In this document: positions 3,514 to 56,205 of the stretch, piece by piece
Numbering within the stretch: the stretch's first letter is position 1
Layout: every line of letters begins with the position of its first letter
DNA from: Scenedesmus sp. PABB004
Taxonomy: Eukaryota
Assembly: GCA_014905635.1 (NCBI GenBank)
Contig: JABVCE010000010.1
Coordinates: 124,001 to 188,000, forward strand
Length of the DNA: 64,000 nucleotides
Reading direction: 5' to 3'
Translations under genes and position numbers: made by a program
Notes under the pieces: model-generated
What the model saw: only the letters and a program-made list of their open reading frames with translations
Told to the model about the DNA's origin: nothing
Database searches by the model: none

Positions 3514-5970
3514 ATGGAGGATGCGGCCATGCTGCTCGATGCCGGCTTCTCCGCCTGGATAAAGAGCGAGCTGTTCGTCGGCGACGACTCGTGGCCCGAT
3601 GCCGACAAGCTCGTGATGGGGGCGGGACCGCTGGACACGGACGCGCTCGTCGCGGCCGCGGCGGCGCCGCTGCCGCCAGCGCTGCTGCCGCCGGCGGGGC
3701 AGCAGCAGCAGGCGCCCCGCGGAGCCCGCGCCGGCGCCAAGAGCCGCACGTGCGTTGCGGGACTGCGCGCGGGCGGGCGCGCGGGGGAGGGGGGGACACA
3801 GGCGCACGCTGGCGCGCGCTCCCACCCACGCCGCCGCCGCCGCCGCCGCCGCCGCCGCCGCCGCGCAGCGCGGCGCGGTCGCCGGAGCCCGCGCCGCGCG
3901 CGCCGGCCGCCCACGCGGGTGCCAAGCCGCGCAACACGCGGCGCTACAAGAGCGAGGCGCAGCGGCTGTCGCACAAGCGCTACCGCGAGCGCAAGAAGGC
4001 CAACGTGCGCAGCCGTGACGCACGCGCGCCCTCGCCGCTGCACGCGCGCGCTCGCCTGTACACACGCGCGCCCGCCTCGCACGCCCACCCGCCGCGGCCG
4101 CGCACCCTCCGCCGGCAGCTCGCGTCAATGGAGCAGGAGGTCGCGGCGAAGCTCGCGCTCGTCGCGGCGCTGGAGGCGGAGAACACCGAGCTCCACAGCC
4201 GCGTGCGCGTGCTCGAGACGAGCGTGAGCTGCTCCACGCGCATCCACGACATCATGACGCAGCTGGAGGCGGGCGTGAACGGGCTCGCGCTCGCGCCGGG
4301 CGCGGCCGACGGCGACACGCCGCGCGGCGGCGGCGCCGCCGCCGCGGCCCCCGCGTCGCAGCGCCTCAGCAGCTGCGACGGCGCGAGCAGCAGCGCCGGC
4401 TGCTTCGGCGCCGCCGCCGGCGCGGAGCTCGCCGACAGCGGCAGCGAGGACCCCGCGGCGGCGCTGCCCGCGGCGCCGTGCAGCTCCGCGACCGCCGGCT
4501 GCGGCGACGCCAGCCCGCACCTGCTGCCGCCGCTGCTGCAGCAGCGCAGCGGCAGCTGCGTGAGCAGCCTGCAGCACAGCGTGTCGGCCGCGTCGGACCT
4601 GGCCGAGTCTGCGAGCATCGCCGCGGCCGCGGTCGCGGCGGCGGGCGGCTACAACCACCCGGGGCGCAGCGGCAGCGCCAGCCTGCTGCTGCGGCCGTCG
4701 TTCGCCATGGGCGGCGCCGGCGCAGGCGGCGGCGGCGGCAGCGGGGACATCGCCGCGATCTTTGCCGAGGCGCAGACCGCGGCGGGCGGCGGCGGCGGCG
4801 CCAGCTCGAGCAGCGCGTGCGGCGCCGCCGGGCGGCTGGCCACGCCGACCAACATCGAGCAGAGCCTCGCGCTGTACAAGGGCTTCCTGCAGCAGGCCTC
4901 GCACCTCATGCTCCACCTCGACGCCCCCGACGAGGGTGCGCGCCGCGCCGAACCGCACCGCACCGCACCGCACCGCACCGCACCGCACCGCACCGCACCG
5001 CACCGCACCGCACCGCACCGCACCGCACCGCGCCGCGCACCGCACTGCACCGCCGCGCGCGCCGGCAGCAGCCCTGCCGCGCTCACCGCTCGCCGCCCGC
5101 CGCACGCCGCCCGCCGCGCGCCGCGCAGGCGCGGCGGCGCGCGCGCGCGACGCGCTCGAGCGCCTGACGCGCGAGACGATGGCGGCGATGCAGCCGTTCC
5201 TGGTCGCGCAGGGGCAGGGCCTGGTGTACGACTGGAACCGGCGCAACCTGGACAGCCTCGCGCGCCAGGACGCGCCCGAGGACCTCTGGCCGCGCGTGCT
5301 GAGCGCGATGCGGCTCGACGCGCGGCAGCGCCAGGACGCGCTTGGCTGCTTCCGCATGTTTGGCGCCTGCCTCTCTGCGCTCGTGGACAAGCGGCTCGCG
5401 CTCACCGCGCAGTACCAGGCCCTGCAGGCGCAGGCCGAGTCGCTGCGCGCGGCCGCGGCGGCGGCCGGCGCGCCCGCGGCGGCCGGCGCCGCCGAGGCCG
5501 CCGCGGCGCGGCTCGACGGCGAGAGCATGGAGCTGCTCGCCGCCATCGCGCGCAGCCTGGCGGCGTACCAGTCGCTGGACGGCGTGTTTGCGCACAGCGT
5601 GACGAGCATCATCACCGGCGCGCAGATGGCCGTCGCGTGCGTGAGCAGCTACCCCTTCCTGCCCAGGCGCGGCGGACTCGCGGCGGCGCTGCGCGGCGCG
5701 GCGGCGCGGACCGGCGGCGGCGCAGCGCGGACCAGCGGCGCGCGGCGAGCGGCACCCCCCCGTCCCCCTCTGACCGACTCGCGCGCGCTGCCGGTCCCCC
5801 GCGCGCAGCTGGCACCGCCTCATGCAGGTCGCGCAGGCGCAGGCGGACGCCGAGGCCGCGGCCGCCGACGGCGCCGCGGGCGGGGCGCGCCGGGCGCGCG
5901 GCGCAGCGCGCGCCAGGTGCGCGGCACGCAGCGCCCCGCGCTCGGCGTGCAGCACGTCGTGCGCGCGTGA
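3514..5970 (+). CDS. bZIP transcription factor (algal type)
   Basis: ATG 3514. Basic region RYKSEAQRLSHKRYRERKKAN splices to the zipper LASMEQEVAAKLALVAALEAENTELHSRVRVLE. Helical C-terminal domain ends ..SSYPFLPSWHRLMQ. Four introns, the last GC-AG at 5667. Confidence 0.82.
4952..5030. repeat. (ACCGC)n pentanucleotide microsatellite in bZIP intron 3
   Basis: About 16 perfect units followed by degenerate copies. Confidence 0.95.
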
Positions 5971-6595
5971 GAGCGCACGCCCGTGAGCGCCCCGCGCGCT
6001 CCGCGCGGGGCGCCGAGGGCGGCGGCCGATCTGCTAGGTCCGGCACTGCAACGCACGACAACGTCACCACACCGCGCCGCCTCGCGCGCCTCACACTCGG
6101 CTTCGCTTTGGCAGCTTGTCGTCGGAACGTGCGCGGGCGGCCAGCTCGCGCGCAGCGGGGGCCTTTTTTGCTATTTGCGGCCTCGCGCGCCGCCTGGGGA
6201 GGGGGCAGGTGTGGGGGCTCATTGGCGTCACCGGCGATTCGCGCGGACGGCCCGCCCGGACGGCTGGCCGTCGCCGCGCGCGCCGCGGCTGCGTACGTTT
6301 AGCAGCGGCGGCGGCTCCTGCACAATGCACAGTGCTTCGGTTCGCTTGGCTGGACAGGGCGGGCCGCGCGACTTTGGCGGCGCGTGGCCGCGCGGCGGTG
6401 GACTGCTCCAGGACTGGCGGCGCGCGGCGCGGCTGCGGCGCGTGATGCTGGGTGGGCGCGCCGGCGGGAGTACGGGCAAGGAAGAGCTTGGGGCTGCAAC
6501 GAGCTGGTGTGTGTGTGTGTGTTTGGTCGGGGGTGGGGCACTGGCACTGACTGACACCGCATCCCACGCGTCGGCGGCCTCAGCGGCTCTGAACA

Positions 6596-6600
6596 TGTAA
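6596..6600 (+). promoter_or_regulatory. Candidate TGTAA polyadenylation signal for the bZIP gene
   Basis: Chlorophyte near-upstream element, about 630 nt after the stop at 5970. Confidence 0.45.
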
Positions 6601-54324: not shown

Positions 54325-54718
54325 CGCGGACTGTGAGCGGAGAGCGGCACCTGGGAGCCGCCGCGAAGCACCAGGACGGCCGGGACTGCCGCGTCTCCGC
54401 TCTGCTGTGCCGCGACGCAGGGCTCGCCACACGCCGCCCGCGGCCGGCGCGACGCGCGTAGCTGAATCCGGACAGTGCTCCCGTCCGCCCGGGACGCCGC
54501 GAGGGCGCGATCGCCGGCCCCAAGCTCGAGCAGCAGAGCCGACTCCAGCGCATCGCGCGGCCTGCGTGCCTTGCCACCGGCACCCAGCAATACCCGCCAA
54601 CGTACCGGGCGCCGCCCGGCCGGTCCGCGCGCGGCCGGCGCCGGCGCGGCGGGCGCAGCAGCGGCGCCGGCGCCGCGCGGCGCGGCGCGGCGCGCCGGCG
54701 CGCCGGGGCGGCGGCGCC

Positions 54719-56205
54719 ATGACGGCGGCGCTGGCGGAGCAGCAGGACGGCCTGCCGCAGCCCTGGGGCGGCGGCAGCGGCGGCGGCGGCAAGGGCGGCG
54801 CCGGCGGCGCGGGCGGCGCGCGGTGGCGCGCCGCCGCGGCGCGGTGGCGCGTGCCGCTGATCATCGTCTACTACGGCCTCTGCTCCAGCACGCTCATCGT
54901 GATCAACAAGGTCGCGGTGCACAACCTGCGCGCGCCGGTGTTCATCCTCTCGCTGCAGCTGCTGTTCGCGGCCGTGACGGTGAAGAGCCTCGCCGCGGCG
55001 CGCGTGCTCGAGGCCGAGACGCTGCAGTGGCGCCTCGTGCGGCCCTTCCTGCTCATCGTCCTCGGCTTCCTGGGCACCGTGTACGGTGAGGCCGCGCGGC
55101 GCCGGCGGGGCCGGCGCCGGCCGGCGGCTGCAGCGGCTGCGCCGCCCTGCAGCGGCTGCGCCGCCGACTCGACCCACCGCCCGCCGCCGCCGCCGCCGCC
55201 GCCGCTGCAGCCAACATCAAGGTCTTGGAGCACTCCAACGTCGAGACGTTCATCACCTTTCGCAGCAGCACGCCGCTCGTGCTGAGCCTCTTCGACTGGC
55301 TCTTCCTCGGCCGCCGCCTGCCGGGCGGGCGCAGCGTGTTTGCCATCCTCCTGCTCGTCGCCAGCTGCTCCGGGTACACCTACTACGACCAGGCGCGCGC
55401 GCGCCCCGCGCAGCTCCAGCGCCCCGCGCCCGCCGCGGCGGCGCCGCGGCGCGCGCAGCGGCGCGCAGCTATAGCAGCGCGTGACGCGGCGCGCCGCCGC
55501 GGCGCTGCGTCGCCGCCGCGTCGCTGCGCAGGGCTTCCGGCTGCAGGCGTACACGTGGCTGTGCGTGTGGTACTGCTTTTTTCTCTTTGAGGCGTGCTAC
55601 GTGAAGCACGTGTGCGACACGGTCGCGATGACCAACTGGGGCCGCGTGTACTACACCAACTTGCTGTCGGGGCTCGCGCTCGCCGCCGCGTTCCCGTTTT
55701 GCGCCGGCGAGCACCGCCTGCTGCAGCGCACGCACTTCAGCACGCCGCAGCTCGTGCTGCTGTTCATGTCCTGCGCCGTCGGCGTGTGCATGAGCCACGC
55801 GGGTGCGGCGGCCGCGGCGCCGCGGCGCCCCGCGCCGCGCCGGCCGCCTCGCCGCCCACGCGGGCGTGCCCGCGCCGCCGCCCGCCCGCCGACCCGCCCG
55901 CCCGCACGCCCGCGCGCCGCGCCGCGGCAGGCTACCTGATGCGGTCCACGGTGTCGGCGACCGCGGGCGTGGTCGTGGGCGTGGTGTGCAAGCTCGGCAG
56001 CGTGCTGCTCAACCTGGCGATCTGGGACCAGCACGCGTCACCCATCCAGCTCTGCTTCCTCTGCCTCGGCCTCGCCGGCGGCAGCCTGTTCCAGCAGGCG
56101 CCGCTGCGCGCGGTGCGGTCGATGTCGCGGCTGCCGCTCGCGGTGCAGGACACGCACGCGACCAGCAAGGACGGCGCGCCGGCGGACAAGGACGTGCGCT
56201 CGTGA
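54719..56205 (+). CDS. Golgi nucleotide-sugar transporter (GONST / GDP-sugar type)
   Basis: YYGLCSSTLIVINK, ANIKVLEHSNVETFITFRSSTPL, NWGRVYYTNLL and VSATAGVVVGVVCK. Three introns, one GC-AG (55393). Confidence 0.9.

Follow-up and report, generated by a model that had tools for sequence, protein, structure and literature searches.

The DNA analysed here is a window of 64,000 nucleotides (nt) from the green alga Scenedesmus sp. PABB004 (contig JABVCE010000010.1, positions 124,001 to 188,000 of the forward strand; all coordinates below are positions in the window), and our subject is a group of its introns that begin with GC at the donor site, where most others begin with GT. Codon periodicity and a self-trained codon log-odds map reveal many short exons on both strands, and a Pfam scan of 130 exon-sized translations placed about two dozen genes in the window, among them genes for a Sec7-type exchange factor, a subtilase, an FGGY kinase, a class-3 lipase, Tic20, a GH3 glycosidase, a cytidylyltransferase, a Bax-inhibitor-like protein, ribosomal protein uS11, a rhodanese, a TPT/EamA transporter, SGT1 and SfsA. 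GC content is 75-83% in every 4-kb bin, which puts this stretch of nuclear genome well above 60%. According to a table in PMC12571836, the whole assembly comprises 39.8 Mb in 77 contigs with 78.5% GC and 7,092 genes, and it is the most GC-rich of the sequenced green algae listed there. Introns are dense here, numbering about 90 or more over the 64 kb, and they are short with a narrow length range (median about 120 nt; maximum 338 nt among confident introns).

The initial annotation had proposed GC donors at 13 coordinates, each preceded by an exonic AG and reading GCGCG or GCGAG, and at all 13, on the strand it had given, the exonic AG is indeed followed by GCGCG (12 sites) or GCGAG (32369). 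All 13 sites adjoin the end of a segment with coding potential. The proposed GC-AG introns are confirmed here as predicted introns, of which 11 are well supported, five by homology scan and six by a gene finder; the remaining two, at 5667 and 22179, are plausible candidates. The motif AGGCG[CA]G itself is not rare, with 94 occurrences on both strands of the 64 kb, or about 0.73 per strand-kb, 11 of which are donors; the chance of finding it within 10 nt of a given exon end is about 1.5%.

Homology was scanned in a way open to any donor: for each exon pair every frame-compatible donor position was scored, with all 16 dinucleotides allowed, stop-free joins required and acceptors limited to AG, the score being the summed local alignment to homologues. 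The scan covered 24 junctions, spread over three conserved genes; a consensus GT came first at 16 and AG|GC at three (31981, 37010 and 10771), while at the remaining five another dinucleotide 1-3 codons away came first, beside a consensus GT at three and beside AG|GC at two (34057 and 32369). GC donors thus account for five of the 24 homology-tested junctions.

Three of these five lie in the GH3 glycosidase gene on the plus strand, at 31981..32125 (CAG|GCGCGG, 145 nt), 32369..32484 (GAG|GCGAGG, 116 nt) and 34057..34165 (CAG|GCGCGC, 109 nt). In the scan of its 12 junctions against eight homologues, a consensus GT ranked first at seven, and at 31417 and 34395 GT ranked second or third, 1-3 codons from the top position. 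Donor 31981 took first place, 61 ahead of the next position. Donor 34057 came second to a CG position one codon away, though the two closest homologues favoured it over all others, and this set did not resolve 32369. With 60 homologues, 31981 outscores the in-frame GT at 31975 for 58 of them, and 32369 outscores the GT at 32339 for all 60. Donor 32369 also gives the best fit to the closest orthologue, P0005 from Scenedesmus sp. NREL 46B-D3, in a gap-free alignment that scores 487, against 475-481 when 1-9 codons are added; the bacterial homologues, whose loops are longer at this point, prefer the 1-9 added codons. At 34057, residue 680 of P0005 continues from 34057 to 34164, and there is no GT nearby. 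The fourth site, 36812..37010 on the minus strand (AAG|GCGCGG, 199 nt), lies in a choline-phosphate cytidylyltransferase gene for which 18 homologues, including transcript-derived ones, were available; GT came out on top at four of its five junctions and 37010 at the fifth, with a margin of 108. The fifth, 10771..10864 on the plus strand (AAG|GCGCGC, 94 nt), lies in the S8 domain of the subtilase gene, where seven junctions were scanned against 30 homologues: GT was first at five, 10771 at one, and a CG one codon from GT 11268 at one. Donor 10771 was first among all donor dinucleotides with 30-40 S8 homologues, and tblastn matches stop at 10770 and resume at 10862-10865.

The second line of evidence comes from a self-trained Viterbi gene finder that combines codon log-odds with donor and acceptor matrices learned from GT sites, penalises intron length and gives C at position +2 a prior of its own; an intron was called confident if its flanking exons overlap the strand-resolved coding map. 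The finder recovers 17-18 of the 18 junctions fixed by homology. With a GC prior of 1%, it yields 88-97 confident introns and 12 GC donors under every setting tried, and when the prior is re-estimated it converges on 12 GC donors among 90 confident introns, ten of the 12 being sites from the initial annotation; the full parse at the 1% prior uses 12 of those 13 sites, 22179 being the exception. Forbidding GC costs 84 nats on the plus strand and 38 nats on the minus strand and forces the finder to poor GT sites (GTCAAG, GTACTC, GTCAGC, GTTTGC, GTCGCC) or to read-through. Among the 15 possible second donor dinucleotides, GC brings the largest gain in likelihood (+136.5 nats), and the runner-up, CG (+93.8), represents the same strings read one base off.

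Six further predicted GC-AG introns are confident in the finder. In a small unnamed gene, 7025..7147 (minus strand, AAG|GCGCGC...CAG, 123 nt) has a donor score of 7.0, against -0.7 or less for in-phase GT alternatives. In the N-terminal part of the subtilase gene, 8599..8670 (plus strand, CAG|GCGCGC, 72 nt) has no GT from -30 to +60 nt; the intron is in frame, so retention is possible, and because no relative of the N-terminal exon (8669-8992) was found among longer proteins, this site rests on the finder and not on homology. In the lipase gene, 23965..24074 (minus strand, GAG|GCGCGG) likewise has no GT from -30 to +60 nt, and its splicing is needed because its length, 110 nt, is not a multiple of three. 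The intron at 38973..39112 (plus strand, CAG|GCGCGC, 140 nt), in a Bax-inhibitor/Lifeguard-like gene, ends nine bases short of where the Bax1-I Pfam match begins (about 39122), and the sole in-phase GT scores -6.9. The last two, both with lengths that are not multiples of three, are 44117..44241 (minus strand, CAG|GCGCGC, 125 nt) in a cysteine-rich unnamed gene, where the sole in-phase GT scores -7.4, and 55393..55531 (plus strand, CAG|GCGCGC, 139 nt) in the TPT/EamA-type transporter gene, where in-phase GT alternatives score -5.1 or less; PDB searches with exons of this transporter gave no hits and two chance hits.

Two sites remain candidates. At 5667..5808 (plus strand, CAG|GCGCGG), in an unnamed bZIP-like gene, the finder uses the donor at the 1% GC prior, read-through meets a stop at 5968-5970, the acceptor is uncertain, and the downstream exon (from 5809, in a different frame) has weak coding potential. 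At 22039..22179 (minus strand, CAG|GCGCGC, 141 nt, in frame), in the C-terminal part of the lipase gene, a donor score of 6.2 and an acceptor score of 3.2 flank a dip in coding potential, and the putative intron, which would end at 22038 or 22039, would remove a Gly/Arg-rich stretch with a negative coding score; the finder keeps the segment as exon.

Scored without position +2, the 13 sites reach 4.7-7.0, whereas GT donors have their median at 4.0 and their 10th percentile at 2.0 (Mann-Whitney p = 1.3e-6). In-phase GT alternatives within 60 nt are either absent or score -0.7 or less, and sites 22179 and 34057, like 8599 and 24074, lack any GT between -30 and +60. Reading through would break the frame in nine of the 11 well-supported introns because their lengths are not multiples of three.

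To describe donors across the window, we combined the 90 confident finder introns with the intron at 37010, which is fixed by homology; 78 of these 91 introns have GT donors and 13 have GC. The initial annotation had put the GC share at 13 of roughly 105 introns, about 12%, and this figure holds: with two dubious finder calls (20849 and 38702) dropped, the share is 11 of 89, or 12% (95% confidence interval 6-21%). The proposed GYGCG donor code likewise describes the window, where the consensus is G-Y-G-[C/A]-G and 68 of the 78 GT donors read GTGCG or GTGAG (GTGCGC 30, GTGCGG 18, GTGAGC 11, and others). GC donors read GCG(C/A)G(C/G) and GT donors GTG(C/A)G(C/G), the major U2-type consensus and not the U12-type ATCCTT box. 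Introns end in CAG in 13 of 13 GC introns and 76 of 78 GT introns (89 of 91 overall), in scans that allowed AG acceptors only.

The two classes differ in what precedes them. GT donors, as the initial annotation had noted, accept many exon ends (CG 22, AG 19, GG 15, AC 5, also TG, AT and others), whereas AG stands before all 11 well-supported GC donors. Counting the two dubious calls, exonic AG precedes 11 of 13 GC donors versus 19 of 78 GT donors (Fisher p = 5.5e-5); seen from the exon, 11 of the 30 donors that follow AG are GC, while the other exon ends precede 59 GT donors and, apart from the two dubious calls, no GC donor. The higher scores of GC donors outside +2 are driven by this exonic AG. 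The requirement of GC donors for an exonic AG is therefore real in the window; the word strict in the earlier claim rests on 11 donors, for which the upper 95% bound on exceptions is 24%.

Altogether, our results support a model, to which we assign a probability of about 80%, whereby GC-AG introns of the ordinary U2 type occur at an unusually high frequency, about 12% of the introns in the window, under GC pressure, with the exonic AG as compensation. On the basis of what is generally known of GC-AG introns, a genome of about 80% GC would be under constant pressure from T to C at donor position +2. In the window, |GTG(C/A)G is the normal donor and follows almost any exon end; a C at +2 would remove one pair with U1 small nuclear RNA (snRNA). 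Such a loss may be tolerated solely after an exonic AG, which would add two pairs at -2 and -1, and with G kept at +3 and +5. T-to-C changes would thus keep arising by GC-biased substitution and would persist only in the exonic-AG context.

Several observations weigh against this model. The junctions are predictions from genomic sequence, and homology scans resolve them to about one codon; at 34057 and 32369, positions other than G[TC] score slightly higher when summed over distant homologues. On intronic positions +3 to +8 alone, GC donors are not significantly stronger than GT donors (p = 0.096), the advantage stemming from the exon positions. The finder's donor matrix favours AG by about 1.9 nats, a small ascertainment bias, and two of its GC donors lack the AG, 20849 (CGC|GCGAGC) and 38702 (ACG|GCACGA); these could be real exceptions, and we regard both calls, which fall in low-complexity or frame-shifted stretches, as dubious. 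Share and rule come from 64 kb of about 40 Mb, so that the donor code which the initial annotation had ascribed to the lineage holds for the window, and its extension to the lineage draws on that sample. Finally, there are 10-12 junctions without a GT, and when a decoy took the place of GC as the second permitted dinucleotide, the finder used that decoy to fill them (CG 10-13, CC 11-16, GG 6-8). Because decoys fill the same junctions, the number of GC calls alone does not discriminate; exonic AG precedes 10-11 of the GC calls versus 0-3 for any decoy dinucleotide, and the discriminating evidence for GC is the regularity of the motif, the likelihood ranking and homology.

The GC donors might also be real and yet depend on a lineage-specific change in U1 or U6 snRNA, or in a splicing protein, that reads C at +2; the initial annotation had also raised variant U1 or U6 snRNAs. 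At +4 and +6, GTGCGC, the consensus here, is a poor partner for the canonical 5' end of U1, and the GC share is about ten times the 0.3-2% of GC-AG introns quoted for plants and metazoans in bioRxiv 10.1101/2024.10.30.620910. Against such a change, the sharp dependence on exonic AG is what the canonical U1 register predicts, and GT is still favoured about 7 to 1 though C is four times commoner than T in this DNA. An Rfam search found no RNA family, hence no snRNA gene, within the window. We consider a change in the splicing machinery improbable; GC pressure as the cause fits the published parallels, and the data can be explained without invoking a variant U1 or U6.

A more radical objection is that the sites are not donors at all, the true junctions being nearby weak GT donors or the segments being retained as coding, and this is how a public gene model treats them. 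A search with one exon of the GH3 gene found P0001, a protein of 1608 residues from Scenedesmus sp. PABB004 (source name BXL3), which maps onto the window in 17 exact blocks, exon by exon and without mismatch. P0001 uses the weak GT donors 31975 and 32339 where we predict the GC introns at 31981 and 32369, translates 34057-34153, an intron in our model, and then omits 34154-34238. The objection can also draw on the candidate introns at 7147, 8599 and 22179, which are in frame and stop-free and could be retained, and on the fact that only genomic DNA speaks to these junctions. However, the two GT alternatives lose to the GC sites in nearly all of the 60 homologues, as described above. The read-through of 34057-34153 is Arg/Ala-rich filler with no counterpart in P0005, whereas the omitted segment matches P0005 and contains the string GYGLSYT, which we take to be conserved in GH3 enzymes. 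Frame shifts in nine of 11 introns, and in-phase GT alternatives that all fall below the 10th percentile of GT donors, argue in the same direction, making it very unlikely that the sites are not donors. Public gene models thus miss GC-AG introns, as seen in the one model mapped, P0001. An assembly error that put C in place of T at +2 can be practically dismissed, since nothing specific favours it beyond the general knowledge that long-read assemblies can carry base errors, random errors would fall neither only after exonic AG (11 of 11) nor at 11 of 89 donors, and AGGCG[CA]G is otherwise common in the window.

Further candidates and irregularities surfaced in the same genes. P0001, at 27762-34871 on the plus strand, merges two genes into one, the GH3 glycosidase gene being joined to an upstream leucine-rich-repeat gene (27762-30507). 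In the subtilase gene, a 17-nt micro-exon at 10492-10508 (plus strand) lies between two GT-AG introns and is supported by homology, both of its junctions having ranked first in the scan, and together with the closing base of the preceding codon it reads VYVLDT. Two GC donors without AG in this gene, 10427 (GCC|GCGGCG) and 11186 (GCC|GCGCCG), proved to be artefacts: with small exons added, the gaps become four introns with consensus GT donors, of which GT ranked first in the homology scan at three, the fourth being the junction at 11268 where CG one codon away came first. Three other suspect GC donors, 10954 (GAG|GCGCCG), 31728 (ACC|GCGCGC) and 58466 (CAG|GCGCCG), were rejected as well; there the finder places GT donors at 10921, 31711 and 58480, and those at 31711 and 10921 are confirmed by the homology scans. 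In the N-terminal part of the Bax-inhibitor-like gene (38656-38810, plus strand), the reading frame changes without a consensus donor nearby, a change that the finder bridges with the unconvincing ACG|GCACGA intron 38702-38784; alternatively, the assembly may have an indel in the C-run near 38796-38801, or an intron may have escaped recognition. In the SGT1 gene, the region linking the TPR domain to the CS domain (57581-58032, minus strand) was parsed at low confidence into an arrangement that includes an exon of 15 nt and, at 57925, the donor CCG|GCGCGC, which, if real, would be a GC donor without exonic AG.

Other features of the window concern introns in general and the uS11 gene. Two G-runs, of 16 bases at 9548-9563 (plus strand) and about 26 bases at about 36460-36485 (minus strand), lie just inside introns, after the donor region. 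The uS11 gene has two 338-nt introns that are not copies of each other. A local segmental duplication links 47842-48141 with 49759-50058, a 300-nt copy of 98% identity that carries one exon of a minus-strand gene, and a second duplicated block of about 0.6 kb links 49104-49729 with 50141-50785 (85-100% identity, offset about 1.05 kb) and repeats the region upstream of the uS11 gene together with the start of its first exon.

The introns described here share with the U2-type GC-AG introns of animals and plants the type of spliceosome, the AG acceptor and, outside +2, a donor that agrees more strongly with the consensus; those introns differ in being about ten times rarer and in having a GCAAGT-like consensus, not GCGCGC. 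GC-AG introns reportedly match the consensus more strongly elsewhere in the donor, including the exonic AG (Burset 2000; Thanaraj and Clark 2001). The plant splice-site survey of Pucker and Brockington 2018 also counts a 'major non-canonical' class of splice-site pairs, which is reportedly mainly GC-AG. In the PMC6310983 supplement, this class accounts for 7090 of 124435 pairs (5.7%) in Chlorella sorokiniana and 496 of 8831 (5.6%) in Micromonas pusilla. Like the alga studied here, these two (64-66% GC, PMC6310983) are green algae with a raised proportion of non-canonical pairs, but their shares are lower, their genomes less extreme and the numbers derived from annotations, which the accessible main text does not take up. 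Chlorella variabilis (67% GC) has only 484 such pairs among 70983 according to the same source.

Higher GC shares are known outside the green algae. In Emiliania huxleyi, 56-65% of donors are GC, a figure checked by reverse-transcription PCR and ascribed to the 65% GC genome (Feldmesser et al. 2014, PMC4028052). E. huxleyi and PABB004 are both GC-rich algae with AG acceptors and a high share of GC donors, and ab initio models under-call GC donors in E. huxleyi too (PMC4028052); E. huxleyi, however, is a haptophyte and not a green alga, GC is its majority donor compared with about 12% here, and the available part of PMC4028052 contains no exonic-AG rule. The pelagophytes Aureococcus anophagefferens and Pelagomonas calceolata have 14-17% predicted GC-AG introns, with high GC given as the cause (bioRxiv 10.1101/2024.10.30.620910). 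Their GC-AG share and intron sizes (means of 103-177 bp) are similar to those found here, but they are stramenopiles with 0.2-0.9 introns per gene, according to the same preprint, whereas the PABB004 window is intron-dense. The initial annotation had suspected that the phenomenon may already be known in related chlorophytes: a high GC-AG share is known from other GC-rich algae, while our literature search, outside which most subscription journals lay, found no report of such a share in the species of PABB004 or in Scenedesmaceae. Neither 'splice' nor 'GC-AG' occurs in PMC13315243, and PMC12636532 likewise lacks 'GC-AG'. A metagenome scan for orthologous introns with P0005 found nothing, and one with P0004 gave 58 loci, 55 of them resembling bacterial GH3 genes by their uninterrupted matches; of the three examined, L051 is uninterrupted, and L057 and L058 are interrupted but distant (50% identity), with an intron at P0005 residues 309-312 and not 292. 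The PABB004 window is thus a new example of a GC-AG habit already known in other GC-rich algae.

For the organism, these results mean that gene prediction in PABB004 needs GC donors, as a pipeline restricted to GT-AG would mis-model roughly one intron in eight, and missed GC donors could contribute to the low gene count of the assembly (7,092; table in PMC12571836). The window adds a chlorophyte dense in introns to the algae in which GC-AG share is linked to genome GC content, and it offers a clean contrast in AG context that is measurable genome-wide. We consider the odds about even that +2 is a conditional site, at which T-to-C changes are nearly tolerated after AG and excluded after other exon ends. 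If true genome-wide, this would explain why the public annotation holds only 7,092, partly fused, gene models, and it would make the genome of PABB004 a natural saturation experiment that shows a sharp base-pair threshold for the recognition of the 5' splice site.

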